A stretch of DNA of 64,000 nucleotides from Bacteroidales bacterium (GCA_021371855.1 JAJFVL010000061.1:23413-87412), one strand, 5' to 3'. Numbered from the stretch's first letter, positions 4,281-63,835 are shown. The notes: generated by a model from the sequence alone, not told the origin. Program-made: numbers and translations.

Positions 4281-4317
4281 AATAGAGGGAATTATCTAAA
4301 AGTTGAACATTACAATT

Positions 4318-7329: not shown

Positions 7330-7347
7330 AAATAAATTATCAAATAA

Positions 7348-8622: not shown

Positions 8623-8731
8623 TTAAATATGCATCTATTGTCCTTCAAATTTAAAAGTTTTATGCGGAAAAGCGCGGATAAAAGTTTCATTTTACCAATT
8701 TTACTATCTTCGTAGTACATAAACATGCAAT

Positions 8732-10402: not shown

Positions 10403-10508
10403 TTGTTGAAATGTTCAATGTATAAATGATTGTTGCATCAATGATTAACATTGGATATACTAATCAAGCTACTGAATTTCAATAATTTAATCTAATAAAT
10501 ATAAGAAA

Positions 10509-11396: not shown

Positions 11397-11425
11397 ATTA
11401 CATTCACAATAAGAATATTTTTCTG

Positions 11426-13474: not shown

Positions 13475-13518
13475 CTTTATTATTAAGATCCTGATAACTT
13501 GAACTTAAACCTTTTATT

Positions 13519-14814: not shown

Positions 14815-14897
14815 GGAGGTTTGAGGTGTGAAGCGTGAGGTAACCGGCAACCATCAATCGGTAGTTAAGGATATTTGGCCATACATTATATATGAAA

Positions 14898-14930
14898 TAA
14901 AAAGGGGCTTTTTATACAGCCCCTTTTTTA
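14898..14930. terminator. Bidirectional rho-independent terminator between the convergent GH29 genes
   Basis: 'aaaaaggggct-ttttatac-agcccctttttt': GC stem ggggct/agcccc (14904-14909 / 14918-14923) flanked by an A-run and a T-run. Confidence 0.7.
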
Positions 14931-14940
14931 TTACATATAA

Positions 14941-42421: not shown

Positions 42422-43846
42422 ATGAATATATGTCTGAATGACAAGATTTTTAACATACTTTCTTCTGTAGTTACGTCAGAAAATGTGAGAGCATATGTTA
42501 TCGGAGGTTGGGTAAGAGATTGTCTTCTTAAAAGAGATCACCCCGATAAGGATATTGATATTGTTGTGATAGGAAACGGAATTGAGTTTGCTAAAAAAGC
42601 TGCAAGGAAAATAAAACCAGGAACCAAAGTCAGTGTTTTTAAAACCTTCGGAACAGCGATGTTCAAAAGCGAAGGATATGAAATCGAGTTTGTAGGAGCA
42701 CGGAAGGAATCATATAACAGAGATTCGAGAAAGCCTGTTGTCGAAGACGGGACTCTGGAAGATGATCAGAAAAGAAGAGATTTCACAATTAATGCTCTGG
42801 CAATAAGCCTTAATAAGGATACTTTCGGTGAACTACTTGATCCATTTGACGGTATTGAAGACCTCCGGAAGAAGATTATCCGAACCCCTCTTGATCCTGA
42901 TAAGACTTTTTCTGATGATCCTCTGCGGATGATGAGAGCAATAAGATTTGCGGCACAGCTTGATTTTACGATCGAAGCAAGAACAATTAATTCAATAAAA
43001 GAAAACGCGGAGAGGATCCGTATTGTTTCTTATGAAAGAATTGTCACTGAACTGAATAAAATAATTATGTGCAAGCATCCTTCAAAAGGCTTTCTACTTC
43101 TTGAAAGGACAGGTTTGCTTAAAATTATTTTTCCGGAGCTTGATAATCTGAAAGGCGTTGAAACAAAAGAAGGTAAATCACACAAAGATAACTTTCAGCA
43201 CTCGATAAAAGTACTTGATAATATATGCAAAAATACTGATAATCTTTGGCTTAGATGGGCGGCGCTTCTTCACGATATTGCAAAACCCGCGACAAAGAAA
43301 TATCTTCCCGGCACAGGTTGGTCATTCCATGGGCATGAATATATTGGTTCAAAAATGATCCCCGATATATTCAGAAAGCTAAAACTTCCTCTCAACGAAA
43401 AGATGAAATACGTTCAGAAAATAGTGGATCTGCACCTTCGTCCGATTGTATTGTCGCAAGAGATTGTTACTGATTCTGCAATCAGAAGATTACTATTTGA
43501 AGCAGGAGATGACATAGATGATCTGATGATTTTGTGCGAAGCTGATATAACATCAAGAAACGAAGCAAAAAAAACAAAGCATCTTGAAAATTTCAAACTC
43601 GTCAGGAATAAATTGAGAGAGATTGAAGAAAAGGACGCAATAAGAAATTTTCAACCTCCCGTTAATGGAAGTGAAATTATCACAACATTTGGAATAAGAC
43701 CAGGGAAGGAAGTCGGAGTTATTAAAAACGCAATCAGGGAAGCAATAATTGAAGGGATAATCCCAAATGACCATGAAGCTGCCTTAAAACTGATGCTTGA
43801 AAAAGGAAAAGAGATCGGGCTTACTCCTGTTGATCCTGCAGTCTGA
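42422..43846 (+). CDS. CCA-adding tRNA nucleotidyltransferase / poly(A) polymerase family protein with HD domain
   Basis: '[12 protein letters not shown]...DKDIDIVV' nucleotidyltransferase motif, '[15 protein letters not shown]', HD region 'HDIAKP'. The track ORF starts at TTG 42407, but the ATG '[10 protein letters not shown]' at 42422 is more likely. Confidence 0.8.
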
Positions 43847-44870
43847 TTTTAAGATCCAACATTACCGGAAGATGATCACTGTATCCGCCCTGGTATCTGT
43901 AACCACGATATGTTGAATAGGGACTGAATCCTGGATATTTAGGATCTTTTTTAAGAAGAAACCTGGGTTTGAAAATGGTGACCATTTCTGAACCGGTATA
44001 CAGTCCATTTTTGCATGTTATTAGCATCTCTGATACTATAATCTGGTCAATCAGTTCCCATGTTCCCATATACCTATATGTCCCGAGTCCTTTATCAGAC
44101 AGATATTCTGACAGATTCTTCAGAATGATCCCCGAATCTGACGGAAGAATAAGAGATTTAATTTCCCGGTCATCAGGAGTGCTGTTAAAGTCTCCAAGGA
44201 TAATAATTTTTGCTTCAACCGGACTACTCCTGATAATTGAATCTGCTTTCTCTCTTACCATTGATGCGATATTCACCCTTAACCCCTCCCCTGCCAGTAC
44301 ACCTCCTCTTCGTGAAGGCCAGTGGTTGACAATCAGATGAATCGTATCAGACTTGATTAAGAATTTAACATAAAGAATACTTCTTGAGGTAAAGTCTTCA
44401 CGCTTAACATCCGACGGTATCCAGTACCTGTAATCAATAACTTCTGCACAATCTTTTCGATAGATCAAACATACATCAATACCTCTCTGGTCAGGAGAAT
44501 CTTCATGAACGATTCCATATTTAAATTTTGATAAATAAGTTCCGGAAACCAGGTCTGCAAGCACTTTCCTGTTTTCTATTTCAGAAAAGGCTACAATATC
44601 AGGAGTGTCCCACTCACCGGCCGCAACCAGTGTTTTATATAACAGGTCTATTTTTCTATTATATCTTGTAAGGTTCCATCTTTTTGTTCCACCGGGAAGA
44701 AATTCATCATCATCTTTTAGGGTATCATCATAAATGTCGAAAAGATTTTCTACATTATAGAACATCAGCCTTACAGGGTGAGATCCGGTATCCTGAGAAT
44801 ATACCCTGTTTAACAATATTATCAAAAACAAAAATGTAATAATCGGCCCCGAAATGATAGACTTATTCAT
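43821..44870 (-). CDS. Endonuclease/exonuclease/phosphatase (EEP) family protein, secreted
   Basis: Signal peptide. '[12 protein letters not shown]', 'IVAFSEIEN', 'LGDFNS', 'SDHLPV' are the EEP catalytic blocks. Confidence 0.8.
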
Positions 44871-45025: not shown

Positions 45026-46021
45026 TCAAAATGCATTTAGCCAACGGTATCTTCTGGCACTTTCTCCGAATTTAACAGCCAATGTAAGTTCGTGACTTCC
45101 AAAACTTTGACTCCGGATGTCGGTTAAAGTAAAATCATATGCATAAGCAAAATAGAATCTGTCATACTTTAAACCCAACAAAAGAATAATTGCGTCATTT
45201 GTTCTCCATGATACCCCGGCCCAATAGTCATCCTTAAAGTAGGCTCTTGCAGTAATATCGGCCTGAATAGATTTAAAAAGCATGTCGGATGATTTAATGA
45301 ACGCAGAGGGTTCAACTTTCCAATCAGAATTCAATACAAACTTAACGCCTCCTGTAAGAAAAAAGTGGCCAAGTTCATTTCTGCCAGTTTCTGAAGTATC
45401 GGCAAATATTAACGAACCTCTGAGCAAATTGGACATTGAAAACCCTACATAGTACTTCGAAGTAGTAAAGCTTGCCCCAAAATTAAAATCAGGAATAAAG
45501 ACTGATCTGTCGTATGAATTCAATAATGGGTCATCAGTGTTATAAATCAATCCGTCGGTATTAATTGCATATTGGTAAGCTGTCAATGCCAAACCGAAAG
45601 AAAGATTATTAGGGAATCCATCGGTTTGACCCATCGAAATATGATAAGCATATACTCCCTGGATTCCTGTACGGTGCATTATTCCGTTATTGTCGTTGAA
45701 TATGTAACCACCAAGACCTACTTTGCTTCCTTTTGTTGGCTTTGTAATATTCTTTCGTACGGTAGTTGATTTTGATATATAGCTGTTTCTAAGAAGGCGT
45801 GTTTGAAAACTGGCAGCATATGTGCTCGGAGCTCCTTCCATTCCAATCCATTGTTCTCTGACAGTAAGATTAACTGTAGTATAACCATCGCGCCCTGCCA
45901 ATGATGGATTTATCAAAAATCCATTCATTGTGTACTGGCTGTACATCGGCACTTGCTGAGCAATTGCTGCTCCAAAGACAAAGCTCAGAACAACCGTTGA
46001 TATATATCTGAAATACCTCAT
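45026..46021 (-). CDS. PorP/SprF-family type IX secretion system outer-membrane protein
   Basis: 'AAIAQQVPMYSQYTMNGFLINPSLAGRDGYTTVNLTVREQWIGMEGAPSTYAASFQ' is the family's N-terminal signature, followed by beta-barrel-like alternation to a C-terminal 'F'. The gene starts 28 bp downstream of the giant type-B cargo gene. Confidence 0.9.
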   Translation of the reverse strand: MRYFRYISTVVLSFVFGAAIAQQVPMYSQYTMNGFLINPSLAGRDGYTTVNLTVREQWIGMEGAPSTYAASFQTRLLRNSYISKSTTVRKNITKPTKGSKVGLGGYIFNDNNGIMHRTGIQGVYAYHISMGQTDGFPNNLSFGLALTAYQYAINTDGLIYNTDDPLLNSYDRSVFIPDFNFGASFTTSKYYVGFSMSNLLRGSLIFADTSETGRNELGHFFLTGGVKFVLNSDWKVEPSAFIKSSDMLFKSIQADITARAYFKDDYWAGVSWRTNDAIILLLGLKYDRFYFAYAYDFTLTDIRSQSFGSHELTLAVKFGESARRYRWLNAF

Positions 46022-46049
46022 ATACTTTATCTGAGAAGAGTTTAAATTA

Positions 46050-49000
46050 TTATCTTATAATACTTATAACACCTGATCGTGGTTCGGATCCATTATTGAG
46101 ATGAAGAACATAATGATATGAATCTGTCGGTAAAAGTTTCCCTTTAAAAGTTCCATCCCATTCATTTGCTGAAATATTTTTTGTTTTGAATACTAATTTA
46201 CCCCATCTGTTAAAGACAAGAACTTCAGCATTGGGGAACAACCCAATATTCTTAATCTTCCAGGTATCATTGAATCCATCATTATTTGGAGTGATAATCT
46301 CAGATACTTCAAGGCAATTTTCCGAACCAACAAAACCAACTACAATATTCAGAGACGCTGCACATCCATTTTTGTCAGTAACGATCACGCTATATGCACC
46401 ATCAGGAATATTCTTTCTGTTCGGAGTTACTATTCCATCAGACCAGATTACATTATAAGGATTTGTCCCTCCCGTAATCGTAAGTGTAATGCTTCCATCA
46501 GCTTCACCCGGACAAGAAGCATCTTCCACCGTATGTGCAATTGAAAGCACTGGAGGTTCTGTGATAACTTCAGATACATTTATTACACAATTATTTGCAT
46601 CGCGGACAGTAATTATGTGTGTACCAGCTCCAAGATTACCAAATACACCAGAGGTCTGATATGCACCTCCATTCAGGCTATACTCATAAGGATAAGTGCC
46701 TCCGTCACCAAGTACCGATACAGATCCATTGGCTGATCCGGAACATGATGCATTATTCTTTGCAACAACTCTTCCTGTTAAGGCTGCTGTTGGTTGAGAA
46801 ATAGTAACTGTCATATCGAACGGGCAAAGATTTGCATCCTGAACCGTTATTAAATATGTTCCTGCAACCAGCGATTCAAATGTACCGGAAACCTGATATG
46901 ATCCTGACCCAAGCTTATAAGAGTATGGAGGTGTTCCTCCCGACCCGTTAACAGTAACTTTTCCTGTATTACTTCCATAACAAAGAATATTGGTCTGAGA
47001 AACGACTTCTCCTCCAACAACTGACAATGGTTGAGTTATTGTGACACTTACATCAGATGTTTTAAGAGTAGCATCCCTGATCGTAATAGTGTAATCTCCT
47101 GCAGCCAGTAAACCGAATATGCCCGATGACTGATATGTTGTCGCATCCAGACTGTACTCATAAGGTGCATAACCGCCCGAACCCTCTATGGTGAAACTTC
47201 CTGTTGCAGTACCAAAACAGGAAACATTGGTTTGTGAAGTAATGCTGCCTGTAAGTGCAAGTGGTGGGGTTACAGTTACCGTAAAGTTGCATATTGCTGA
47301 ATTACCTGCTGCGTCATAAACAATATATGAAACAGTTGTTACACCAGTGTTAAAAACATATGTCCCAACCTGATTAACCCCCGTAGCCGGCGATACGGCT
47401 GTCGTTGCTCCGGTCATTACCCACGTAAGAGTATTAACAACACAATTATCAGTAATAGTTGCATCAGGAACCTTAATTGTTGTATAACTAAATCCGGCAT
47501 CTTCAATTTGAGAAATATTAGCAGGGCATGTTATTGCAGGTGACTCATTATCAATCACAACTACATTAAAACTGCAGGTGGTTATTTTTCCGCAGTTATC
47601 TGTAGCAGTATACGACACAGGAGTTGTTCCTGTTGTAAAGAATTCACCTGAATTATGGGAACTTACGACACTCAATAATCCGCAATTATCCGTCACAGTA
47701 GGAAGAGTCCAGGTTACTAATGCACCACAACTACCGGGATTGTTATTTACTGTAATATCTACAGGACAACCGTTAATTACAGGGGCAGTCGTATCTGCTA
47801 TGTTTATGGTTTGACTTACATTTACACTATTACCATGAGCATCTGTTACTGTATATGTTCTTGTTATTACCAAAGGACAGGTTCCTGTTGAAACATCACT
47901 GCTTGTCACCATTAGTGCCACATCATTCGTACATGCATCTGTTATGGTTATGCCTCCTGGCAGAGCTTCCAATTCCGCAACGGAAGTTACAGCTGCCGGA
48001 GCAACACTTAAGGTACAACCTTCTATCGTTGCCTCTGTTAAAGAGCCAGCAACAACGGGTGATGAATTGTCACTTATAATTACATTCTGTGTCTGGATAG
48101 TTGTGTTGCCATTCCCATCATCATATGTCCATTTGACCACTGTCGTACCCTGTGTAGTGATCGGTAATACAGCATCACTCGTTACTGTTACCATACCAGC
48201 ACAGTTATCAGTTGCAGTAGGTTGCATTAAGGCAGTAACTGAGCAATCAGCAGTTACATCCGGTAAAGTAGTCAGATCAGGAACAGGATCAGTAATATCA
48301 GTTATTACTACATTCTGCGTCTGGGTAGCAATGTTGCCATTCCCATCATCGTATGTCCATGTGACTATTGTTGTACCTTGTTTGGTTATTGGTAATGCAG
48401 CATCGCTGGTTACAGTTACAGTGCCTGTACAGTTATCTGTTGCTGTTGGCTGCACCAATGCCGTTATTGAACACTCGGCTGTTATATCCGGCAAAGTAGC
48501 AAGATCCGGAACAGGAGCAATAAAATCATCTACAGTTACTGTGGTCGATGAAGAAGTTGCCTCCAGACATGCTCCGTTCTGTACAACTGCCCTGAATTGT
48601 GTTGTAGATACCAATACTCCTGAGATATATGTATCAGCCGTATTTATTATGTCGGTCCAGGTAGTACCATCCGGTGAGGACTGCCACTTAGTAACCGTTC
48701 CGGTATAGCCTGTTAATGTCATTATAGCACTCGTGCTTCCGGCACAGATAGATGTTCCTCCAGTTACTGTTCCACCTACACTGGCCACAGCTACAGTTAT
48801 TGTACCAGTCGAGGTCACGTTTCCACAACCTCCTGTCAATGTTACAGTGTATGGGAATGACCCGGAGACTGTCGGTGTGCCAGTTATCGTTACTACATTA
48901 CCAGCCCATGAACCAATTACACCTGCAGGTAAGCCTGTTATCGTTGCCCCGGTAGCTCCCGTTGAAGCAAAAGTGATGTCCGTCATAGCAGTGTTGATAC

Positions 49001-52000
49001 ATAAGGTCTGGTTATTTGTTCCTGCACCGGAGCTTAATGTGATCGTATTGTCTGACGTAACTGTTATAATACCTGATGAGGTAACTGTTCCGCAACCGCC
49101 TGTCAGTGTTACTGTGTATGGGAATGACCCGGAGGTTGTTGGTGTGCCACTTATCGTGACCACATTACCAGCCCATGAACCGCTTACACCTGAAGGTAAC
49201 CCTGTTACAGTTGCTCCGGTAGCTCCGGTTGTTGTAAACGTGATGCTTGTCATCGCTGTATTAATACAAAAGGTCTGGTTATTTGTTCCTGCTCCGGAGC
49301 TTAGTGCTATTGTATTGTCTGGCATCACTGTTATAATACCTGTCGAGGTAACTGTTCCACAACCGCCTGTCAGTGTTGCTGTGTATGGGAATGACCCGGA
49401 GGCTGTTGGTGTGCCACTTATCGTGACTACATTACCAGCCCATGAACCTGTTACACCTGAAGGTAACCCTGTTACCGTTGCTCCGGTAGCTCCGGTTGTT
49501 GTAAACGTGATGCTTGGCATCGCTGTATTAATACATAAGGTCTGGTTATTTGTTCCTGCTCCGGAGCTTAGTGCTATTGTATTGTCTGGTGTTACCGTGA
49601 TCTTACCTGTAACTATAGCCAGAGCGCATGTACCTGTTGAGGTTACTGTATAATTGAATGTACCCGAAGCTGAAGGTGTACCGTTTATTGTAAAAACCCC
49701 TGCATTATATGTACCAGTAACTCCTGCCGGTAAGCCGGTCACTCCTGCTCCTGTTCCTCCACCTGTTACGGAGTATGTAATATTAGTGATCGCTGTATTG
49801 ATACATTTAGTCTGTGCGTCAGTACCTGAGGCTGAATTCAACGATATGGCAGCATCAGGATTAACTGTAATTGTTCCATTTGTTGTTACTGTTCCACAAC
49901 CTCCGTTCAATGTTACCAGGTAATTAAATATACCTGAAACTGTCGGAGTGCCACTAATCGTTATAGAATTGGACAGCCAGTTACCTGTTACTCCAGAAGG
50001 TAATCCGGTGACAGTAGCGCTGATGGCTCCTGTTGTTGAATAAGTGATAGTCGTAAGAGGGGTGTTAATACATTTCGTCTGTGCATTGGTACCAACTGCC
50101 GAGGTTAATAATATTGTATTGACAGGGGTGACAGTAATTACACCGTTTACTGCAACAATACCGCAACCTCCTGTTAGAGTTATTGTATAGTTATAAGTAC
50201 CTGAAACTGTTGGAGTACCACTTATCGTCACTACATTCGATGCCCAAACACCAGATACTCCCAATGGTAAGCCATTGAAGGTAGCACCGGTGGCTCCGGT
50301 GGTCGCATACTTTATATCTGTGATCGCTGTATTAATGCATTTCGTTTGTGAATCCGTACCTCCTGCTGAAGTGAGTGTTATGGCATTTTTGGGCGAAACT
50401 ATGATCGTACCTGTCGAGGTAACCGTTCCGCAACCACCAGTCAATGTTACTGTGTATGGGAATGACCCTGAAGCTGTCGGTGTTCCACCTATCGTTACTA
50501 AATTACCAGTCCATGAACCTGTTACACCTGCCGGTAAACCTGTGACTGTCGCACCAGTTGCACCTGTCGTTGCAAACGTGATAACAGTCATTGCCGAGTT
50601 GATACATAAAGTCTGGTTATTTGTTCCTGCACCGGAGCTTAGTATGATGGTATTGTCTGGACTTACTGTTACATTGGCTGAAGCTGTAATTGAACCACAT
50701 CCACCAACCGGTATTGTTGTATAAGTAACAGTATAGTTTCCTGCAGTACTTGTACCAGGAGTAATCGCTCCAGTGGCTATGTCTATTGTCAATCCTGCCG
50801 GAGTCGCTGAGTAAGTCCCTCCTGTGTAAGCTCCTGTCCCTGTTAATGTCACATTCTGCACTCCTGCAGTGGTACACCATGATGAACCTACATATGAAAT
50901 TATTGCTGTAGGAAGTGGTGTAACAGTAGTCTTGATACCTGCAGAGGTCGAGGTACATCCACTTGCATTTGTAATTATTACATCTACTATCTGCCCATTT
51001 GTAAGTGAGGTTGTAGTATATGTTGCAGAACTGCTGTTTTGCACAATAGTCCCATTTACCCTGAACTCATAATTGGTTCCGCCACCTGCAGTGAAAGTGA
51101 CACTGCTCCCATCACATATAACATTGTCCGCATCTGAACTCGAAATTGTAGCTGAAGGTAAAGCGAAAACAGTATTGGTAATACCAGCAGATTGTGCACT
51201 GCAACTGCTTGCATTGGTAACTACCACATCAACTACCTGACCGTTGGTAAGTGCCGTAGTTGTAAATGAAGGGGATAAACCACTTTGTATACTTACTCCG
51301 TTAATCCGGAAGTTATATGTCGTTCCTCCACTTGCTGTAAATGTAACACTTGTGCCTGCACAGAAAGAGTTGTCTGCATCAGAACTTACTAAACCTGGAA
51401 CTGGTAAGGCAACTACTGTATTGGCAATACCAGCAGAAGTAGTACTGCACCCGCTTGCATTGGAAACAATCACATCAACTACCTGTCCGTTGGTAAGTGT
51501 TGATGTGGTATAGATTGGCGCTCCGCTGTTCTGAACACTTATTCCATCAATCCTGAAATCAAAGTTAGTTCCACCGCTTGCAGTGAAAACAACAGTTGTT
51601 CCTAAACAGAATGTATTGTCTGCGTCTGAACTGACCAGAGTTGCTGTCGGATATGCAATAACTGTGTTAGTTATCCCAGCTGAAGTAGCACTGCATCCGT
51701 TAATATTTGTTACTATCACATCAACTACCTGTCCGTTGGTAAAAGAAGAAGTAGTATAAGTTGCAGACGCGCCGTTCTGCACGCTTGATCCATTTACCCT
51801 GAAGTTATAGTTATTCCCCCCAATTGCAGTAAAAGTGACACTTGTTCCGGCGCAGAAAGTATTGTCAGCCTCAGAGCTGGACAGAGTTGGTACGGGCAAG
51901 GAATTTATAGTTACTGCTGTTGAGGTTGCGCCTGTACATCCGCTTCCATTTGTTACTGTAACTGATACATTACCGGTTGGTCCGGACCCCCATGTGACTG

Positions 52001-55000
52001 TTACATAATTATCGGTTGAGGCTCCTCCACCTGTGATATTACCACCTGTAACTGACCAACTGTGAGATGAATAAGTACTTGAGAGTGAATATGTGGAGAC
52101 AGATCCTGAACAAACTGATAAAGGTTCAACGCTAAATACAGGTGTTGGAAGTGCATTGATTGTTACTGTGTTCTCAACAGAAGACCCACATGTATTCCCC
52201 ATGAGATCAGTTTTTGTAACAGTTCCTACTACCAGACCCGAAGTGGCTCCAACATCCCATCTGACAGTGACTGTGTTGGTGTTGGTCGGAGAAAGGAATG
52301 TCCCGTTAGTAACATTCCAGGAATATGTTGCACCTGATGAAACAGTAACATTGTATATTTTCGTATCCCCGTCACAGGCATTTGAATTAACCTTTGTTAC
52401 ATTGTTAAATGCAAATCCACTCTTGTTCAATACAAACTGTGATGTAGCAGTACAACCATTTCCATCAGTCACAGTCAATCGGATATTGTACACTCCGTCA
52501 GGCATCAGGTTATTGAAGAATGGAGTTGCTGATGTACTTGTATTACTAAAGTGTATGAACGGGAAAATACCATTAAAGTATACAAAAGGATATGCACCGG
52601 CTTCAATAACACCCCAAAGATAAGTATATGATCCACTGCCACCTGAAACAGAGGCTTTATATGATGCAAAAGGAGAAGCAAGGTCGCAAGAGGATAACGA
52701 CATAGCATCAATTTTAAGTGTCGAGGAAACAGTTATCTGCACACTTTTTGACCTGGAATTTCCATGAGAATCCAAAGCAGTCAAAATGACGGTCCTTGTT
52801 CCCATATCTCCGCAATTGAATGTGCTGGGAGAAACAGAAAGAGTAACAGATCCACAATTATCGAATGAACCGTTATCAACATCTGATGGCAGTAAAGCTC
52901 CCGTGCCTGTTGGACCAAGAACAAGGTTAAATGTTTTGACATTTACAACAGGTTTGACAGTATCAAGAACTGTAACCAGTGATGTACAAGTCGATGAATT
53001 CGATGATGCATCAGTTCCGGTAAGAGTAACTGAAACAGGGGTTCCGATATCAGAACAGCTGAAAGCAGTCCTGTTTAGTGAAAAGTTAAGGACTGAAGTA
53101 CAATTATCAGTGGACCCATTATTAACTGCAGAGGCATTTAATATCCCGGTTCCTGATCCATCAAGATATAGGTTTACATCTTTGCATAAAACCACAGGAG
53201 GTGTTACATCCTGAGTTATAAAGAGTACCGTAACACTTTCTTTGTTGCCGCTTTCATCTGTGGCTTCAATAAGGATATTTGTCGAAGCAGCTCCGGTGAT
53301 AATTGAACCTGCAGCAGGAGTTTGTGTTTTTGTCATTGCCCCCGGAACAGTACAGTTATCTGATACAGTTAATGATGCAAGGAAATCAGGAACCAGAGCC
53401 TGACAGTTGTTATCAAGATTTTGAGTTTTATTGGCCGGAGTAGTTATAACCGGTTTTGCAGCATCTAAAACAGTCACATCAATATCGGAGCTTGAGCTGT
53501 TCCCTGCAATATCCGTAGCTGTTAAAGTTACCGTAGTTATACCAAGACCTACCATCGTACCGGCAGCAGGTGTCTGGGTGACAACAATGCTTCCAAGAGG
53601 AGTGCAGTTATCTGAGAATGTTGCAGCTATTGGAGGGATTGCAGCCTGACATCCGGCTCCGGAATTTATTACCGGAGGCGTGGGAAGGGTTATTACAGGG
53701 CCTTCGTTATCAGTAACAGTTACTGTAAATGAGCATGTTGCTGTATTTCCGCTTCCATCTGTAACAAGGAAGGTGTTTGTAGTGGTACCAACCGGAAAGA
53801 CTGATCCGCTTGCAAATCCTGTAGTCTGGGATGTGGTACTCCCGGAACAATTATCAATACCTACAGGTGTGGCATAATTTACTACTGCTCCGCAAACTCC
53901 GGGGTCTGTAAAGGTATTCCAATTCCCCGGACAAGTTATCACCGGCAAAGTATTATCGGCAACAGTTACAACTGATGTGCATGTCGAGCTCTTACCTGCG
54001 TTATCAGTAACAGTCAATATTACATTATTAGGTCCTATATCAATACACGAGAAATTATCAGGAGATACAGACAGGCTTGCAATTCCGTCAGGATCATTCG
54101 ATCCGTTATCTATATCTGCTCCGTTAATAGAAACAGTACCGGCAGAATTAAGACTAACAGTTATGTTTTTACAAATAGCTACCGGAGGATTATTATCAAT
54201 AACTGTAACTACTGCAATGCATGTAGAAATATTTCCACTATTATCAGTAATTGTCAGTGTAACATTATTGGGTCCTATATTGGAACTGTTGAAAGTATTC
54301 GGGGCAACAGATGCCGATGCAATACCGCAATTGTCAGTTGATCCGTTATCTACCTGGGCAGCAGTTATTGTTGCTGCTCCAAAGGCATCAAGGATTACTG
54401 ATATATTCTTGCATAGAGCAACAGGAGGCTCAGATTCATTTACAGTTATTGTAAAACTACAGGTAGATGTATTACCTGAAATATCGGTAAATGTGTAACT
54501 GACAGTCGTTACCCCTTGATTAAAATTACTGCCAGGAGCATTTGACCGTGTAGTATATGTCATTGCACCACCACAATTATCTATTGCTGTTGGTTCAGAC
54601 CAGGAGACTGCAGCAGAGCAGAGACTCGGGTCGCTGGATATAACAATATTCGCAGGACAATCAGATATAACCGGTGCAATTGCATCACCGATCTGGACAA
54701 TATAATCCGGAGTAGTATAAGAACATCCTGTTAATGTAACTGTTTCGGTAACAGCAACAGTTCCGGGACCAGCAGCTCCCCAATTTACCTGAATACTATT
54801 TCCCGAACCAATAAGGGTGCCACCAGTCACAGTCCAGTTATACGTATTACCCGGGACTAAAGGTGTCGAATAAATTACACCTGCAGCATTAGGACACACA
54901 CTATTATTCCCTGATATTGAAGGTGTTGGTGAAGTACCCAATATAATAGCCTGAGAACCTGCCATGTTATTGGTACAGGAAGTCGTAGTATTTGTTGCCA

Positions 55001-56501: not shown

Positions 56502-56513
56502 TTATTTTAGGGC

Positions 56514-56542
56514 AAATATAATCCTCAATGTGTCAAACAAAT
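56514..56542 (-). promoter_or_regulatory. Candidate Bacteroidota-type promoter for the giant adhesin gene
   Basis: Minus-strand TATATTTG (56521 to 56514) fits TAnnTTTG. TTTG (56542 to 56539) lies 17 nt upstream, slightly short of the usual 19-21 spacing. The box is only 13 nt upstream of ATG 56501. Confidence 0.3.
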
Positions 56543-56893
56543 ATAAAGCAGAAAACTAAATTTGTCAGATATCGGCTAACTCTAAACTTCTTATGATAGC
56601 GAATGTAATCATTTTTTGTTCACCTGCAATACATATAACATATACAATTTTAAGTTCATTTTCAACATATTAATATGACATTTTATAACCATCATTGGTT
56701 GCTTTATGATCTTTACATTAAGACTATAAGAAATCGCCGTAAGTTGCATATACCTTTTGCAAAACAAGGCTATAAAATATTCTTTTTTGACTAAACATCA
56801 TTTTTATACTTTGACCAGTGAGTTATCTGTGACAAAATGCAGTACTAATCACTTTCGATTTAATCTTAATCAGGTAAAAAGTTAAATTATTTC

Positions 56894-57029
56894 TTCTTTG
56901 ACAGGTTAATGAAGTTATTATTTTTCAGCTTTTTTTACCCCGATCCTAAAGGGTGAAAAGCTGAAATATCAACATGTTCTCTTTGGGATTAAGGGTAAAA
57001 ACATGTTGATTTTTCAATCTGTCAAAGAA
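56894..57029. repeat. Nested inverted-repeat element (outer 11-bp stem enclosing two long hairpins)
   Basis: Outer stem: ttctttgacag (56894-56904) / ctgtcaaagaa (57019-57029). Hairpin A: tttcagctttt (56923-56933) / aaaagctgaaa (56956-56966), with an inner extension taccc/gggtg. Hairpin B: atcaacatgtt (56968-56978) / aacatgttgat (57000-57010). All three 11-bp pairings are perfect. Confidence 0.7.
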
Positions 57030-57073
57030 TTATCCCTGTAAAAACATCTTAAATATTTATTTTACCATAATTC

Positions 57074-57104
57074 TTTGCAAAAAAGAAAATGTAATCTATA
57101 TTTG
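57074..57104 (+). promoter_or_regulatory. Bacteroidota-type promoter of tRNA-Val (TTTG-N19-TAnnTTTG)
   Basis: TTTG at 57074-57077 and TATATTTG at 57097-57104, spaced 19 nt apart. The tRNA starts 14 nt after the -7 box. Confidence 0.6.
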
Positions 57105-57117
57105 CACTCTCTTTTTA

Positions 57118-57192
57118 GGGCGATTAGCTCAGCTGGTTCAGAGCATCTGCCTTACAAGCAGAGGGTCGGGGGTTCGAATCCCTCATCGCCCA
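57118..57192 (+). tRNA. tRNA-Val (anticodon TAC)
   Basis: GGGCGATTAGCTCAGCTGGTTCAGAGCATCTGCCTTACAAGCAGAGGGTCGGGGGTTCGAATCCCTCATCGCCCA. Acceptor GGGCGAT/ATCGCCC, anticodon stem TCTGC/GCAGA with loop CTTACAA, T-loop TTCGAAT. CCA is not encoded. Confidence 0.9.
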
Positions 57193-57200
57193 CAACCTAA

Positions 57201-57238
57201 AGAGGCCGTCTCATAACATAATTGAGACGGCTTTTTTA
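57201..57238 (+). terminator. Rho-independent terminator after tRNA-Val
   Basis: gccgtctca (57205-57213) / tgagacggc (57223-57231) followed by tttttt. Confidence 0.8.
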
Positions 57239-57371
57239 TTTGAGTTTTTCTATAGTTTTTTTAAAACAGCTGATTTCGGATCAAGTCAAAAAGGCGGTTG
57301 ACAGGCAGAATTTTCATGCAAAAAGTTTTTCGAGTCTGTATATGAAAAATGAAATATCCCTTACTCCTCGG

Positions 57372-57519
57372 AGATTCCTCACTCCACTGCGTTTCGTTCG
57401 GAATGACAATACACTTTACATTATAGTGATGGGTCAGTGTGGGCGGCATGGCCGCCCACACTGACCCATCACGCTATCCTGCTATCAGCAGCTGTCATTC
57501 CAACCGACGGGAGGAATCT
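57372..57519. repeat. About 148-bp imperfect palindromic element with a perfect 22-bp-arm GC-rich core hairpin
   Basis: Core: gtgatgggtcagtgtgggcggc (57426-57447), loop atg, gccgcccacactgacccatcac (57451-57472). It is flanked by inverted conserved blocks: agattcctc (57372-57380) and ggaatgaca (57400-57408) on the left, tgtcattcc (57493-57501) and gaggaatct (57511-57519) on the right. Confidence 0.75.
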
Positions 57520-57710
57520 TTAAGGTAAAAGTAGCTGATGATACTCAACATAAATTATAGACTATAAGTGAGCCTGCAAAGAATAATATCAATGCAAAAA
57601 AATACTATGTGACGAGCGCACCACTTTCTCTACTACTCAACCACTCTCTTTTGCCTAGTATGCCAGCAAAGCAACTCTGTCTTGTTGTAGCAATTTATCT
57701 CTCTACGGGT

Positions 57711-57742
57711 ACTTTTCCCGGGTTAATAAACCCAGGAAAAGT
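57711..57742 (-). terminator. Possible terminator hairpin downstream of the second PorP/SprF gene
   Basis: acttttcccggg (57711-57722) / cccaggaaaagt (57731-57742): a 12-bp stem with one C-A mismatch and an 8-nt loop. No clear U-tract. Confidence 0.3.
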
Positions 57743-57816
57743 TCCAACTCTATTTTAATTGGTTAAATATTTTAATGTCCCCAAACTATTTAGTTATTTC
57801 CATCTTTATCTCAATC

Positions 57817-58728
57817 TTATTTTTCATTTCTGACTATTTTCATAATATCAAAAAGTCTCAATCCCAGTGATATCTGGTGACTGCCAAATGTGTTTAATGC
57901 AACATTAGAGCTCAGGTTATAAGAATAATTCAAAAGAACTCCTTTGTAAATCTCTCCCCCGAAGCCAAGCCCGTATATACCGCCGGTTCTAAAGACTAAT
58001 GTTCCCCAGAAACGATTTTCCCATATTACTGCAGGAGCTATCTCCAGCTGTGACGGGACATGCTCTCCACCCCTGAAAATAAGTGTCGGTATAACCGACC
58101 ATTGTTTATTTATATCATAGGTATACGAGGCATGAATAAGATAGTTTTTGAATGGTCTGTATGAAAGATCTGTATCGCGATACTTTGCTGTTCCAAACAT
58201 TATATTTGAGAATAAAACTCCTGCTTCCACCTGTTTGTACCTGTAAAGTACACTTACATCAGTGGCAAATTTGATCTTCGATTTCTCTTTGCCATATCTC
58301 AAAACGGCATCATCCACATAATCAGGATCGTTGTAATATTTTGAAAGGTCGATAGAATTCCGGAAAAATCCAGCAGAAAGCCCAAAATTCAATAAATGGT
58401 CCGTACCCGGTTTTACTTCATAAGTATATGTTCCAAGGATAAGAGTCTGTTTAAAGATATCTGTTTTATCGTATACAAACCGTCCTCCGACACCGACTTT
58501 TTCCTTATACCTGTCGCTGTAACTCATCTGGATTGTCGATGGACCACCTTCAATTCCAGTCCAATCGGACCTGTAATCCAAAAACAAAGTTTTGCTGTTG
58601 TATATTCCTGCATATGCAGGCGATAAACTGAAACGATTTACATTGTATCCTTCCATGAAAGGAAATTGCTGTGCATTTATTGTTCCTGTTATCATCAGTA
58701 ACAATGCAAAATATATTGACTTCTTCAT
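57817..58728 (-). CDS. PorP/SprF-family type IX secretion system outer-membrane protein (second copy)
   Basis: 'MKKSIYFALLLMITGTINAQQFPFMEGYNVNRFSLSPAYAGIYNSKTLFLDYRSDWTGIEGGPSTIQMSYS' is the family signature. The track ORF extends to 58776, but the signal peptide begins at the Met encoded at 58728. Confidence 0.85.
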   Translation of the reverse strand: MKKSIYFALLLMITGTINAQQFPFMEGYNVNRFSLSPAYAGIYNSKTLFLDYRSDWTGIEGGPSTIQMSYSDRYKEKVGVGGRFVYDKTDIFKQTLILGTYTYEVKPGTDHLLNFGLSAGFFRNSIDLSKYYNDPDYVDDAVLRYGKEKSKIKFATDVSVLYRYKQVEAGVLFSNIMFGTAKYRDTDLSYRPFKNYLIHASYTYDINKQWSVIPTLIFRGGEHVPSQLEIAPAVIWENRFWGTLVFRTGGIYGLGFGGEIYKGVLLNYSYNLSSNVALNTFGSHQISLGLRLFDIMKIVRNEK

Positions 58729-58823
58729 TTCTTTGTAATTTTTTTTCACTTTATTCTCTTTTCTTAATGAATTCATCAGATTTTATTCCTCCACACTAAT
58801 TCACAGGAGGGAGAAAAAATCAT

Positions 58824-61800
58824 CTACCTTACTATGTTCACTACCCCATTGATGGTCCCCCGTTTTTCTGATTTAATAATATAATAGTACGAAGCAGATG
58901 GAAGTAAGTTACCTTTCCAGGTACCATCCCAGTCGTTCTTATAGCTGCGCGATTCATAAACCTTTTTGCCAAAACGATTGTATATAGTGACCGATATATT
59001 ACCATACTCTTCTATATCCGGTATGTACCAGTAGTCGTTCATGCCATCGCTATTAGGTGTGAATAACGACATTATATTGTCAAAGGTAGGCTTCGATTCT
59101 GCAGTCAATGTCACTTCTGTTGCAGGATTCCAGTTTTGATCACCATTCTGGCTGGCAGTAATTGTAAAATCACCCTCTCTTTTGATTGAGAGAACATCGT
59201 TATTTATGATGCAAATCGAAGGATCTGATGCTTCAAAACTTACTGTAAGTCCACTTGAGGCTGTTGCTACCAACATGTAATCCTGGGTAGCTCTTAAGTT
59301 ATCGGGCAATGATTCGAACCTGATAAACTGGTCAGCTTTATTTATTATTAGATCACCCTCAATATACTTAAAGTCGTAATTTTCATCTTCTGCACCGGAA
59401 ACCATAATATAATAAGTGCCTGCATTCGAACCTTTCAAAGCATCAGTTTGTGCCACAGGTTGAATATTAAGAGCACCCTGATCCTGGCCTAGAACGAAAC
59501 CTGAATACGATACTGTCAAAACCGGATTATCATTACCATAAGTCTTACTTTTATCATCGGCAGTTATAGTAAGCAACGCTTTTTTAACTTCAAAATTCCC
59601 GTTAACAATAATTAAATCATAATTGTTATCCGATCCGCCATTTAAGACAACAGGATAATTGCCTACATTGCTGCTTAACACGACACCAGTAGAAGCTACA
59701 ACAGCTTCATCAAGAACCGATGCATCTTCCGAATTCCTGAATCCATTATATGAAATAGTCAGATCAGGATTCTCAGAACCATATACCTTGGTTTTGTCAT
59801 CAGCCTTTACTGTCAGGGCAGTTTTGGTTACAGTCATATCTGCAGGTATATAGTTAAAAGAGTAATTTTCATCCGCTCCTTCTGAAACAGTTATAGCGTT
59901 TACATATATATTAGCCGGACTTGTAAGTGTAACTGTTGTACCTGCTTTAGGCAGAGTTGTCAATACTGATTCATTTTCATTATTCTCCCATCCGCTGTAG
60001 GTGAATGTCAGCTCAGGATCAGGAGCGCCATATTCTTTCGTCTTACTATCAGCTGTTACAGTCAATACTTTTTTGGAGATATCCAGGCTTCCATCAATAA
60101 AACTTATGTCATAGTTTACCGAGGTTACACCACTGACGGTAATGACATAACCTGTTCCTGCATTGACTGCTGATGCTGCTGTTCCGCTATATGCCAATGC
60201 TCCACCGAGAACACTCTCAGTTTCGCTGTTTACAAACCCACTGTATGTTACCGTGAAAGAAGTGTAAACAACTCCGTCATACGTCTTGCTCTTGTTCTCT
60301 GCTGTTATTGTCAACGGAGCCTTGCTGATATCAAGTGTGCCGTTATTAAATGTAATTGAATAGTTGTCTGATGTCAGACCTTCCGGTGTAATAACATAAC
60401 CAGTGCCTGCATTGACTGCTGATGCTGCTGTACCGCTATATGCCAATGCACCATCAAGAACACTCTCTGTTTCGCTGTTTACAAACCCACTGTATGTTAC
60501 CGTGAAAGGAGTGTAAACAACTCCGTCATACGTCTTGCTCTTGTTCTCTGCAGTTATTGTCAACGGAGCCTTGTTAACCGTAAATTCATTCTGAACATCC
60601 GATGCTGCAAAATAAGTATCATTTCCAGCCTGTGAAGCTGTTATAAAAGAAGTTCCTGCTCCGACAATTGTGACCATGTTGCCTGATACTGTAGCTGCAC
60701 TGGGATTAGAACTCGAATAAGTAACAGGAAGGCCGGATGTTGACGATGCTGTCAGATAGAAGGCATCATCTCCGTATGTTTTGTCTCCCAGAATGTCAAA
60801 AGTAATAGTCTGGTCAAGCTTTGTTGTTGTTACTGCAGTAGAAGATGAGTAAAAGCTAACACCTTCGGGAAGGAGAGCACGGAAACGGTAAAAATATTGC
60901 GTAACAGGATCAAGGCCTGAAACGATGAATGCAGTAACATTATCTACATCTTTATTATTATATCCTGAAACAATATTTGCAAAAGAATTATCTGTTGCAA
61001 CATCAAGGAAATATTTTGTTGCACCAGAAACTGTATTCCAATTTGCTCTGAAAGAAGTCCCTGATATGTCTGTTGCTGCTGTTGTTGAAGGCACAGAAAA
61101 AGTAACTGTAACGTCGTCAGACACATCCGGCACCGGGTCTCCAGCCATACCTCCATATTCAACCACATAACCGTCGAGGATATTCGAAGAACTAAGATCA
61201 TTCCATTTACCGTTTGTTAAGAACTGCGCATAATCTTCATTTCCCCCTGAATTATTAGGTTCGCCGGTGTTCCAGTTGGTATACGAGAGTACGCTGCCAT
61301 TTTCAGGTCCTTCGATCCATTTCCATGTACCCTCTGAAGCTTCATCACTTGCACCTAACCAACCCTGTCCAAGCAATTTTGACAAGCAGAATGCACTTTC
61401 TTCTTCAGAAGTTATAGTTACCAGATAACCCTGCAAACCAAAGTACTTTCTATTAGCTGCTATTGTTTTAGCCTCCGGCCATGTAATGCCCGGATTAGTC
61501 ACATACTCATAGTAGTGCCCGTTACCGGAAAACGGCAATGCAGTGTTCAGACTGATTTTAATATTTCGGGAAGAAGCATTTGGAATAGCCTCAGTGTTAG
61601 AATAGGTTACTTTTCTTATTATTGCCTGGTATGTTGCCACATCAGCTGATCCGGTAATGGATAATATTCCTGTTGAAGGGCTAAAAGAATATGAAATAGT
61701 GCCAATGGTCCCGCTGGCAGATCCATCTATACCAAGTATATCCTGACCAGAGACATAATTACCGTTTATTGAAACATAAGCGCCTTCTAAGGCAGAACCA

Positions 61801-63392
61801 GTTACCGTAGCATTAGAGGCTATATAGACAAGCGCATTAGGTGCAACTGTTGTTCCTCCGTTACTGCCTGAAATAGTAGTAGATATAGTTGTAAAAGATA
61901 ATTCGTTTCCATAACCTGTGCCCACAGAATTTGTAGCATAAGCTCTTACATAATAGGTCGTACCTTCTGACAGATCTGTTAATGAGCTTGTAAATGAACC
62001 TGTTCCTGAACCATCAGCAGAATGACTTCCTGAGACTGTCGGATTTGATGAAGTACTCCAGCAGACTCCTCTTGCAATCACCGATTGTCCACCATCATCA
62101 CTCACACTTCCCCCTGATGTTGCAGTATTAGTTGAGATATTTGTCACTGTTCCGGTGGAAAGTACCGGTACAGTGTATGCATTTGTAGTAAATTGAACCT
62201 TTGCAATAGATGAAAACTCAGGAGTCGCGTCTTCTGAAACAAAATAGAGATCATATGATGTTCCTGCTGTAAGATTTGTAAGGCTGAATTGCTTCTCCAC
62301 ATTTGCTGACATTAAACCTGAACCAGAGCTTATTACAACTACAGAGCCATAATTAACCCCGTTCTTTATTTCAGATGCTGTTGGTGCAGTTGAGTTACGG
62401 GGAACAACCATCCAATAACCTGTACCTGCAGTTGTAGTTTTAGCTTTGAAAGTTGCGGTAGTATAAGTTATATCGCTGACAGCTCCGCTTGCAGCTGCAA
62501 CATCGGCAATAATCGTTTCAAGGTCAGCCAGTTTACCGGCAGCATAATACCAACAAAACTCATCACTTTCTCCACTGGCCAGATCATTCATCCTGACATA
62601 AAAACCATACGAGCCATCATTTGTCAGTTCAATACTACTTGTCTGGGGATTCTGGTTGGTAACATTGGTCCAGTAACAGCAAGAATTTATAATATTATTC
62701 CCTTTTGAGGAATTTGTATAAAACAAGACACCTTCATCTGCAGTGGATATTCTTAATGCCAGAGCCCTGTCAGCTGCATTCGTCAGCTTGACAAACGCAC
62801 CATCAACCAGGTTTCCCTTCTCTTTTTTGGGTGCATCAGTTCCACCCACATAATCATCTCTGGTACCGACCCAATATCTCACATTATTTATTGTACTTCC
62901 GCTTGTGTTCTTAACATTTGTGGTAATCTTAATAAAAGACTTATCTTGTCCAAGTTCATAGGTATTTTTAATTTCCAGTGTTAAACTGTTTATTGTGATA
63001 GTTCCGGTAGAAATAATTGTTCCATACCCATTCGGACTTGTTGTTGTAATATAACCAGATAAATCAATAACCTGCCCAGTCATTGTAGGATTGTTGGAAA
63101 GAGATCCATTGAGGTTCCATTCATTTGTTCCATCACCATCTATAGCAAAAGTGTTGTCAAGAGGATAAGAAGAATAAGTAAGCTTTCGCCAGAGAGCTAA
63201 AGTGGAGTTATAATAGAAAGGTTGCTGCATGTTTCCATTAGAATTGATGGAATTTTCAGATCCGTTTCCAGAGCGTATAAGATTATTATTAAGAACAGTC
63301 TGACCTAAAATATCTTGAGTAAAATAGATAAGGCCACATAAAATTAATGCAGATAGTAAAACACACCTGAATTTGTTCATAAGATATTTCAT
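58824..63392 (-). CDS. Large (1522 aa) cell-surface protein with C-type lectin-like domain, Fn3/Ig-like modules, five MBG-type repeats and T9SS type-B C-terminal domain
   Basis: CTD (58827-59072): 'LFTPNSDGMNDYWYIPDIEEYGNISVTIYNRFGKKVYES...WDGTWKGNLLPSASYYYII'. Lectin block: 'GHYYEYVTNPGITWPEAK...GYLVTITSEEE..F...GWLGASDEASEGTWKWIEGPE......YTNWNTGEPNN...EDYAQFL.NGKWNDL'. Five 'K..LT(I/V)TA..K.K.Y(G/D)......T..YSGF...E..SVL' repeats. Signal peptide 'VLLSALILCGLIYF'. Confidence 0.9.
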   Translation of the reverse strand: MKYLMNKFRCVLLSALILCGLIYFTQDILGQTVLNNNLIRSGNGSENSINSNGNMQQPFYYNSTLALWRKLTYSSYPLDNTFAIDGDGTNEWNLNGSLSNNPTMTGQVIDLSGYITTTSPNGYGTIISTGTITINSLTLEIKNTYELGQDKSFIKITTNVKNTSGSTINNVRYWVGTRDDYVGGTDAPKKEKGNLVDGAFVKLTNAADRALALRISTADEGVLFYTNSSKGNNIINSCCYWTNVTNQNPQTSSIELTNDGSYGFYVRMNDLASGESDEFCWYYAAGKLADLETIIADVAAASGAVSDITYTTATFKAKTTTAGTGYWMVVPRNSTAPTASEIKNGVNYGSVVVISSGSGLMSANVEKQFSLTNLTAGTSYDLYFVSEDATPEFSSIAKVQFTTNAYTVPVLSTGTVTNISTNTATSGGSVSDDGGQSVIARGVCWSTSSNPTVSGSHSADGSGTGSFTSSLTDLSEGTTYYVRAYATNSVGTGYGNELSFTTISTTISGSNGGTTVAPNALVYIASNATVTGSALEGAYVSINGNYVSGQDILGIDGSASGTIGTISYSFSPSTGILSITGSADVATYQAIIRKVTYSNTEAIPNASSRNIKISLNTALPFSGNGHYYEYVTNPGITWPEAKTIAANRKYFGLQGYLVTITSEEESAFCLSKLLGQGWLGASDEASEGTWKWIEGPENGSVLSYTNWNTGEPNNSGGNEDYAQFLTNGKWNDLSSSNILDGYVVEYGGMAGDPVPDVSDDVTVTFSVPSTTAATDISGTSFRANWNTVSGATKYFLDVATDNSFANIVSGYNNKDVDNVTAFIVSGLDPVTQYFYRFRALLPEGVSFYSSSTAVTTTKLDQTITFDILGDKTYGDDAFYLTASSTSGLPVTYSSSNPSAATVSGNMVTIVGAGTSFITASQAGNDTYFAASDVQNEFTVNKAPLTITAENKSKTYDGVVYTPFTVTYSGFVNSETESVLDGALAYSGTAASAVNAGTGYVITPEGLTSDNYSITFNNGTLDISKAPLTITAENKSKTYDGVVYTSFTVTYSGFVNSETESVLGGALAYSGTAASAVNAGTGYVITVSGVTSVNYDISFIDGSLDISKKVLTVTADSKTKEYGAPDPELTFTYSGWENNENESVLTTLPKAGTTVTLTSPANIYVNAITVSEGADENYSFNYIPADMTVTKTALTVKADDKTKVYGSENPDLTISYNGFRNSEDASVLDEAVVASTGVVLSSNVGNYPVVLNGGSDNNYDLIIVNGNFEVKKALLTITADDKSKTYGNDNPVLTVSYSGFVLGQDQGALNIQPVAQTDALKGSNAGTYYIMVSGAEDENYDFKYIEGDLIINKADQFIRFESLPDNLRATQDYMLVATASSGLTVSFEASDPSICIINNDVLSIKREGDFTITASQNGDQNWNPATEVTLTAESKPTFDNIMSLFTPNSDGMNDYWYIPDIEEYGNISVTIYNRFGKKVYESRSYKNDWDGTWKGNLLPSASYYYIIKSEKRGTINGVVNIVR
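59340..60580. repeat. Five tandem ~249-bp (83-aa) MBG-like coding repeats; the first two (60141-60575) are near-identical at DNA level
   Basis: cattgactgctgatgctgctgt...caacggagcctt occurs at 60161 and again at 60410 (offset 249 bp), with about ten scattered substitutions. Confidence 0.8.
61150..61525 (-). other. C-type lectin-like domain region of the 1522-aa protein (EPN at 61254-61262, WND at 61197-61205)
   Basis: EPN is encoded by attaggttc (reverse complement GAA CCT AAT). WND is encoded by atcattcca (reverse complement TGG AAT GAT). The surrounding 'WIGL-like' 'GWLGASD' and 'EGTWKW' blocks are in canonical CTLD order. Confidence 0.7.
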
Positions 63393-63835
63393 AATCTACC
63401 TCCCTGAATTTTAGTATCTGTAACATTCCACGCATCACCTGATTTTTGGAGTTCAAGAATTACTCTTTGGGTAGCAATATAACCTGAAACAGGATAATGA
63501 TACACAAAGTCAACTTTAGCTGAGTTTTGTTCGATATTAAGTTCCCAAAACAGAAAATAATTATTTATAGTACCTGATGCAAGCTGGTCTTTATTAATAA
63601 ACTGTACTCTCATCCCTGACTTATAAGCTTCTGTATTAGCAGGGAATGAAACACCGTGTTGCAGAACATAAATTCCGGAAAAGCTCCCATTGGAATTTCG
63701 TGGAATATATTGCTGTAATTCAGGCAGATCAATGCATTTCTGCAGAATTTTAGCCATGTCACCGGAATTTTGAGCATTTACTTTAATTGTAAAGCCCAGA
63801 ATCACCAAAAAAATCAGAGTAAAAAGTTTTTTCAT
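63389..63835 (-). CDS. Small secreted protein of unknown function, translationally coupled to the 1522-aa adhesin gene
   Basis: 148 aa with signal peptide 'MKKLFTLIFLVILGFTIKVNAQ'. Its stop overlaps the adhesin start (4-bp ATGA-type overlap at 63389-63392). No recognisable family. Confidence 0.6.
   Translation of the reverse strand: MKKLFTLIFLVILGFTIKVNAQNSGDMAKILQKCIDLPELQQYIPRNSNGSFSGIYVLQHGVSFPANTEAYKSGMRVQFINKDQLASGTINNYFLFWELNIEQNSAKVDFVYHYPVSGYIATQRVILELQKSGDAWNVTDTKIQGGRL

Follow-up and report, generated by a model that had tools for sequence, protein, structure and literature searches.

The 64,000-nt window analysed here, the whole stretch from a Bacteroidales bacterium (GCA_021371855.1 JAJFVL010000061.1:23413-87412; all positions are those of this window), holds at 45026-63835 two very large adhesin-like genes, each followed by a gene of the PorP/SprF outer-membrane family. 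The locus raises the question of whether these genes form two separate pairs of a type IX secretion system (T9SS) cargo and its dedicated carrier, a duplicated or jointly acting block, or part of the gliding or core secretion machinery. A first-pass annotation had proposed cargo-specific partner pairs. We conclude, with a probability of about 0.85, that the region contains two independent operons of the known kind, in which a type-B cargo is encoded with its cognate PorP/SprF carrier, and that they are neighbours by happenstance in an uncultured environmental Bacteroidales. That a cargo is encoded with its cognate carrier has been established before (Kulkarni 2019, Gorasia 2022, Paillat 2025, Liu 2025) and is well documented in Flavobacterium; these operons are ordinary new examples.

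Two pairs of type-B cargo and carrier

ORF calling recovered the four minus-strand open reading frames (ORFs) listed in the first-pass annotation, namely giant 1 followed by PorP1 (module 1) and giant 2 followed by PorP2 (module 2), with gaps between cargo and carrier of 28 bp and 95 bp, respectively. Both giants had been said to end in a C-terminal domain (CTD) of type B. TIGR04131 indeed matched giant 1 at 75.1 bits and giant 2 at 73.1 bits against a cut-off of 35, reaching the last residue in each protein, and CHU_C agreed (PF13585; E 2.2e-23 for giant 1 and 1.5e-22 for giant 2). The assignment of the downstream genes to the PorP/SprF family was likewise borne out. TIGR03519 scored 232 bits for PorP1 and 157.6 bits for PorP2 (scored as the 319-aa ORF) against a curated cut-off of 90.55, both matches spanning nearly the entire 292-position profile, and PF11751 matched with E 1.9e-70 and 2.1e-39. 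In both searches that could be run on the premises of the annotation, for the CTD and for PorP/SprF, every score exceeded its curated cut-off. Giant 1 had been placed at 46050..56501; an ORF of that extent, encoding 3483 aa, is present, but it opens with TTG, and the start is most likely the ATG at 56486, because this Met is conserved in five homologues. The start of PorP2 at 58728 stands, and the resulting 303 aa equal the length of a 100%-identical NCBI protein (P0001).

As had been claimed, the two carriers are clearly diverged (24% identity between PorP1 and PorP2) and the passengers differ, the giants being alignable over the CTD alone (42% over 88 aa). We compared the last 90 aa of 81 cargos beside PorP1-type carriers with those of 43 cargos beside PorP2-type carriers (124 loci). 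CTD identity was 70% and 75% within the classes and 36% between them, and the nearest-neighbour CTD belonged to the other class in 0 of 124 cases. Such tracking of CTD and carrier class is what cognate pairing predicts at the sequence level. Moreover, the cargo gene preceded the carrier gene in all loci with sequence upstream of the carrier (up to 80 of the PorP1 type and 53 of the PorP2 type), and the gaps were comparably short. The proposal of cargo-specific pairs, not a recent duplication, is therefore supported by the low identities of carriers and CTDs, by separate orthologous groups and by class tracking in 124 of 124 loci. Natural variation also marks the part of the cargo that travels with the carrier, about 414 aa (four SprB repeats plus CTD) in one class versus about 550 aa in the other, and these conserved tails fit the experimental need for extended type-B CTDs.

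The two modules stand next to each other on one strand with a common architecture, as would be expected of a recent tandem duplication or of one functional super-operon, and PorP1-type modules do occur in tandem in two related loci, L032 (1198-2199 and 10001-10996) and L035 (44-1045 and 10001-10999). Nevertheless, we regard a duplication or super-operon as highly improbable here. The carriers share 24% and the CTDs 42% identity, the passengers are unrelated, and the 1.3 kb between the modules contain a divergent tRNA-Val that has a terminator of its own. None of the related loci open to checking has the two modules side by side: the PorP2-type modules of L001, L002 and L004 have different neighbours, while 20 PorP1-type loci are bordered upstream by tRNA-Val, and no PorP2-type gene was detected in PorP1-type loci, including those reaching 2-6 kb beyond the tRNA.

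Alternatively, one or both PorP genes could be general core components of the T9SS, like PorP of Porphyromonas gingivalis, with the cargo adjacency being incidental. PorP1 is highly conserved and is matched by a family-level hidden Markov model only, a single PorP serves the P. gingivalis system (PMC12618676, PMC9143113), and one carrier of Flavobacterium johnsoniae can serve several orphan cargos (PMC12618676). However, the 24%-identical carriers each follow a different CTD class at 28-95 bp, the link to the cargo is seen in all related loci that extend upstream of the carrier gene, and no porK/L/M/N-like domains turned up in neighbouring genes, whether of the window or of related loci L001-L007. 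A core role is therefore very unlikely. In P. gingivalis, PorP is encoded with porKLMN and essential for its system. Unlike that species with its single PorP (PMC12618676), the present genome has two or more diverged carriers, each linked to a cargo, and no porK/L/M/N close by.

The interpretation as two cognate pairs agrees with what is known from characterized systems. In F. johnsoniae, a porP/sprF-like gene directly follows most of the type-B cargo genes, CTD fusions require co-expression of the cognate carrier for their secretion, the pairs being specific with some cross-talk, and type-B signals need 150-235 aa (all as reported in PMC12618676, citing Kulkarni 2019). SprB was detected in complex with SprF, and PG1035 with PorP and PorE, which points to the carrier as the anchor (PMC9143113), and each type-B substrate is described as having a dedicated anchoring carrier (PMC12635249). 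The parallel with SprB/SprF drawn in the first-pass annotation is in line with these three reports.

On the basis of the work in F. johnsoniae and P. gingivalis, we propose that the adhesin-like giant of each operon would be exported to the periplasm by Sec, and that its type-B CTD would be recognized at the T9SS translocon by the 14-stranded barrel encoded directly downstream. The carrier would then extract the cargo from the translocon, stay bound to it and hold the adhesin on the cell surface. By analogy, we infer that secretion may depend on the neighbouring carrier and that the giants may be surface-anchored adhesins. A type-B protein held at the surface by a PorP-family barrel, as proposed here, would resemble the PG1035-PorP-PorE assembly of P. 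gingivalis (PMC9143113). The operons also resemble Fjoh_3952/Fjoh_3951/Fjoh_3950 of F. johnsoniae, a system with demonstrated CTD/carrier specificity, in that an adhesin-like type-B cargo other than SprB has a dedicated downstream carrier (PMC12618676). Unlike that set of static adhesin, carrier and PorE-like anchor, no OmpA_C gene follows either carrier here: the EEP gene described below lies downstream of PorP1, and the 1.3 kb downstream of PorP2 are non-coding except for the tRNA.

Several observations weigh against two functionally cognate pairs. CTD and carrier classes could go together because whole operons are inherited vertically, not because the pairs are functionally specific, and cross-talk between pairs is documented in F. 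johnsoniae (PMC12618676). The structural model of PorP1, described below, has moderate confidence (pLDDT 65). Neither carrier has the Cys-X-Cys tail of SprF and neither operon has a PorE-like gene. Finally, none of the T9SS core genes (sprA/sov, gldK/L/M/N, porV, porU) and no other gld gene was found among the approximately 40 window ORFs scanned.

One more T9SS cargo, the third, is encoded in the window at 32737..34326 (minus strand). This DUF362 protein of 529 aa has a type-A sorting domain, which matched Por_Secre_tail at 31.1 bits (cut-off 27) and TIGR04183 at 31.4 bits (cut-off 23). Nothing else in the window, the two modules aside, points directly to a T9SS, and the type-A CTD of this protein implies that the system is present.

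The main outcome is confirmation that the rule of cargo and cognate carrier from F. johnsoniae also applies to uncultured environmental Bacteroidales. The most useful additions are the fixed locus and variable passenger of module 1, the conserved tail lengths, the small protein of module 2 and the absence of both destination markers, the Cys-X-Cys tail and the PorE-like gene. Given present knowledge, neither the tail lengths nor the missing markers are surprising.

The module 1 locus and its passenger

Module 1 is an SprB-like unit at a fixed chromosomal site between a tRNA-Val and a secreted nuclease-like gene, with a passenger that is exchanged freely among relatives. The syntenic order is divergent tRNA-Val, giant, PorP, a gene of the endonuclease/exonuclease/phosphatase (EEP) family with a signal peptide, CCA-adding enzyme, thioredoxin and exonuclease VII. 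A genome scan with PorP1 gave 80 loci at 68-82% identity. In all 80, the next gene after the PorP1-type gene is an EEP gene (Exo_endo_phos_3, ExeM/NucH-like) of the same orientation, at a median gap of about 100 bp. On the other side, a large ORF ends shortly upstream of the PorP1-type gene wherever upstream sequence suffices, mostly at 19-30 bp and occasionally as far as about 260 bp away. Of the 34 loci having the full 10-kb flank, 20 contain tRNA-Val upstream of the giant, with a distance from tRNA to PorP of 4.1-9.4 kb versus 11.1 kb in the window. Across the same 71 genomes, conservation was 74.8% for PorP1, 80.4% for the CCA enzyme and 61.8% for the EEP protein. Carrier and cargo tail thus evolve like core genes while the passenger turns over.

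All but one of the 80 PorP1-type loci come from metagenome-assembled genomes (MAGs) labelled Bacteroidales, Rikenellaceae, Bacteroidia or Bacteroidota. The other, L076 (JBLNAO010000098.1; 70% identity), is labelled a Chloroflexota MAG and most likely represents a binning error, because the PorP/SprF family has, to our knowledge, been described only in T9SS-bearing Bacteroidota and their relatives.

Giant 1 consists of a long leader/signal region, CUB, PKD-like/HYR domains, unannotated immunoglobulin (Ig)-like arrays, HYR, four SprB repeats and the type-B CTD. A full-length Pfam scan missed the SprB repeats, and PKD_6 and Ig_7 were likewise seen only when the protein was scanned in 700-aa pieces; with the C-terminal 430 aa scanned alone, PF13573 (SprB x4) matched with E 4.4e-34 and 116 bits, and CHU_C with E 2.6e-24. 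The DNA contains tandem repeats at 48070-48528 and 48796-49610 (228 and 267 bp). When giant 1 was compared with the upstream ORFs by BLASTP, a conserved C-terminal block was delimited, with a median of 414 aa (interquartile range 409-426, n=56 loci) and 50-67% identity. Outside this tail, giant 1 was covered in just 6-49% of loci, and its N-terminal region of about 475 aa is common to a subset of loci only. Passenger size in the module 1 giants ranges from about 1,200 to more than 7,500 aa, and the giants of two relatives measure 4705 and 7503 aa.

Inspected by eye, the N-termini of the cargos have hydrophobic segments ending in SQ or GQ. Ahead of the hydrophobic core of the putative signal peptide, giant 1 and homologous proteins have an unusual conserved extension of about 45 aa (MKxRN..KAI...; 56310..56486, minus strand), which is reminiscent of the lengthened signal regions in some secreted proteins of very large size. 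Many short-read MAG contigs (L008-L087) stop 1-5 kb upstream of the PorP1-type gene, inside the repetitive giant, and long-read MAGs show apparent frameshift fragments in the giant gene upstream of it. In public assemblies, such giant adhesin genes are therefore truncated or fragmented systematically.

As modelled by AlphaFold2 (AF2; pLDDT 65, pTM 0.66), PorP1 comprises 14 long strands that run antiparallel. A Foldseek search of the PDB with this model gave 120 matches at E<=0.001, of which the best 50 are all outer-membrane barrels; a search of PDB by sequence matched no chain with either PorP1 or PorP2. The best structural match was 8gl6_F (E 4.9e-8), from a T9SS substrate-bound complex, followed by the 14-strand barrels OmpG and FadL. 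We take the matched 8gl6 chain to be PorV. The predicted barrel fold and the match to 8gl6 are consistent with a carrier role for PorP1. As judged from its model, PorP1 would resemble PorV, the general type-A carrier, in being a 14-stranded FadL-like outer-membrane barrel that collects substrate from the translocon. Unlike PorV, which serves all type-A cargo and is recycled or abundant, PorP/SprF carriers are linked to their cargo and stay bound (PMC12618676).

These features raise the possibility that module 1 is the true SprB/SprF gliding pair of the organism, with giant 1 propelled on the GldJ/K/N track and driving gliding. The architecture is that of F. johnsoniae SprB-SprF: a giant repetitive cargo with four SprB repeats directly before the TIGR04131 CTD, and a PorP/SprF-family gene immediately downstream. 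PorP1 is conserved almost like a housekeeping gene (74.8% versus 80.4% for the CCA enzyme). In both systems the conserved C-terminal region extends beyond the CTD of about 85 aa, SprB needing more than 200 aa for secretion, and the tail of about 414 aa is similar in size to the SprB tail of 448 aa that has served as a mobile reporter (PMC12618676, PMC12635249). Moreover, a PorE-like gene is the mark of 'static' operons and none is found for 'dynamic' substrates (PMC12618676), and module 1 has none.

However, the Cys-X-Cys of the SprF C-terminal tail is invariant in close SprF homologues, forms a disulfide to GldK and is required for sustained movement on the track (PMC12635249), whereas the present carriers lack it, SprF being compared by its published description. 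PorP1 has no cysteine at all. Cys-X-Cys was absent from all 120 PorP1 homologues listed, none of which has a cysteine in the last 40 aa, and from the 240 homologues listed for both carriers (120 per carrier). PorP1 has instead a C-terminal tail, KFGESARRYRWLNAF, that is conserved among homologues, with the near-invariant form KFGESARRYRW(I/L)NA(Y/F) common to PorP1-type carriers. Full-length identity of the PorP1 homologues in the database is 74-85%, and nearly all of them have 332 aa. Also unlike SprB-SprF, no sprC/sprD-like genes lie upstream, giant 1 being preceded by non-coding DNA and the divergent tRNA-Val and giant 2 by a 148-aa protein, and the passenger is made of CUB, HYR, PKD and Ig-like arrays. 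Gliding genes were not seen in the window, and GldA was rejected as an identity for the ATP-binding cassette (ABC) transporter at 21284..23367, the ATPase of which (22447..23367) scored 200 bits against a cut-off of 402.6. We consider a gliding role for module 1 unlikely and favour an independent adhesin operon.

A related and more speculative idea, which we consider rather improbable, is that PorP1-type carriers define an SprB-like adhesin system with a disulfide-independent link to the envelope, either to the gliding track or to another anchor. It is proposed because these carriers are cysteine-free, are about 75% identical across environmental Bacteroidales and have a near-invariant periplasmic tail of basic/aromatic character. 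If this were true, the locus would be a fixed 'adhesin cassette' site, at which the passenger is exchanged and the parts on either side of it, a leader/CUB head and a tail of four SprB repeats and CTD, are conserved. With neither destination marker present in them, both carrier families are candidates for testing whether a third mode exists.

Module 2 and its small secreted protein

Module 2 represents a separate family, whose cargos combine a conserved MBG_2 stalk and CTD with carbohydrate-binding heads that vary. In the loci read, PorP2-type carriers are always preceded by a CHU_C cargo with MBG_2/YDG repeats, and the cargo heads differ among loci (C-type lectin, F5/8 type C, laminin-G). The conserved C-terminal block of these cargos is about 530-600 aa long (median 554 aa), with variable N-terminal heads. 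Pfam scans of giant 2 found no SprB repeats (PF13573). PorP2 has no cysteine, its homologues are 59-78% identical, and 1 of the 120 listed has a cysteine in the last 40 aa. In one relative (L002, 1-9970), two consecutive CHU_C cargos precede a single PorP2-type carrier, which suggests that a carrier can be shared.

A 148-aa ORF with a signal peptide, absent from the first-pass annotation, opens module 2. The encoded protein belongs to an uncharacterized family of 38 proteins and has no Pfam or NCBIfam match. Members of this family occupy the same position upstream of an MBG_2 cargo and PorP in L113 (3790-4242) and L136 (7741-8184). Its AF2 model is confident (pLDDT 86), with an alpha+beta fold; the fold search gave weak NTF2/cystatin-like matches only, none at E<=0.001. 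In other PorP2-type loci, a different signal-peptide protein of about 150 aa, with a match to DUF4347, stands at this position.

Just upstream of PorP2-type modules there are often regulatory genes, namely a HisKA_3 hybrid kinase, a GerE response regulator and, in many cases, a single-domain receiver (L001 1-2289, L004 760-4019 and L136 4495-7659). These neighbours suggest dedicated regulation of PorP2-type modules in relatives. The last 165 bp of the window are non-coding, and the equivalent of the regulator region of relatives lies beyond its end.

Intergenic repeats and other features of the window

The first-pass annotation had placed a tRNA-Val and two structured repeats between the modules, and all three were found again, both elements folding with z of -7 to -9.6. 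For the nested element between giant 1 and the tRNA, z is -7.1 on one strand and -7.5 on the other; this element occurs once in the window and was not found in related loci. The composite palindrome downstream of PorP2 is also single-copy in the window, with a z of -9.4 and -9.6 on the two strands. One of its arms (57371-57408) recurs downstream of the PorP2-type gene in L121 (4375-4412), and the element therefore looks like a dispersed repeat of the repetitive extragenic palindrome or miniature inverted-repeat transposable element (REP/MITE) kind. We rejected both elements as regulatory RNAs of these operons and read them as palindromic DNA repeats, because they fold equally on both strands, are single-copy in the window and lack a conserved position in relatives. 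In an Rfam scan of the intergenic region the tRNA alone reached threshold; sub-threshold matches to microRNA precursors merely reflect the perfect hairpin. Scans for sigma-70 promoters and terminators found about as many as expected from shuffled sequence, and their results were set aside.

Table 1. Features of the two modules and their surroundings, in window coordinates
Feature	Position	Strand	Details and evidence
Secreted endonuclease/exonuclease/phosphatase-family (EEP) gene	43821..44870	-	349 aa, signal peptide; PF19580 E 3.2e-83
PorP1, PorP/SprF-family outer-membrane carrier	45026..46021	-	331 aa, signal peptide; PF11751, TIGR03519
Giant type-B cargo 1 (giant 1)	46050..56486	-	about 3478 aa from ATG 56486; longest ORF from TTG 56501, 3483 aa
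Giant 1, conserved C-terminal block	46053..47294	-	residues ~3070-3483; C-anchored BLASTP
Giant 1, type-B CTD	46053-46310	-	residues 3398-3483; TIGR04131, CHU_C
Giant 1, four SprB repeats	~46332-47249	-	residues ~3085-3390; PF13573
Nested inverted-repeat element between giant 1 and tRNA-Val	56894..57029	.	pair of hairpins within an outer stem
tRNA-Val(TAC), divergent from giant 1	57118..57193	+	ARAGORN; Rfam 73.5 bits
Composite palindrome, REP/MITE-like, downstream of PorP2	57365..57520	.	perfect 22-bp hairpin 57426-57472 inside outer arms
PorP2, PorP/SprF-family carrier	57817..58728	-	303 aa from ATG 58728; longest ORF to 58776 (319 aa)
Type-B cargo 2 (giant 2)	58824..63392	-	1522 aa; Pfam, TIGR04131
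Giant 2, type-B CTD	58827-59075	-	residues 1440-1522
Giant 2, YDG/MBG_2 x5 stalk	59103-60323	-	
Giant 2, fn3	60837-61094	-	
Giant 2, C-type lectin	61185-61436	-	
Giant 2, N-terminal region		-	unannotated
Small secreted protein, LLG13_17510	63389..63835	-	148 aa; overlaps giant 2 start by 4 bp

At the other end of the window, a carbohydrate-related cluster at 1468..16305, unrelated to the modules, encodes two GH29 alpha-L-fucosidases, two proteins of the 3-keto-disaccharide hydrolase family, a GFO/IDH/MocA oxidoreductase and a xylose-isomerase-like TIM-barrel protein.

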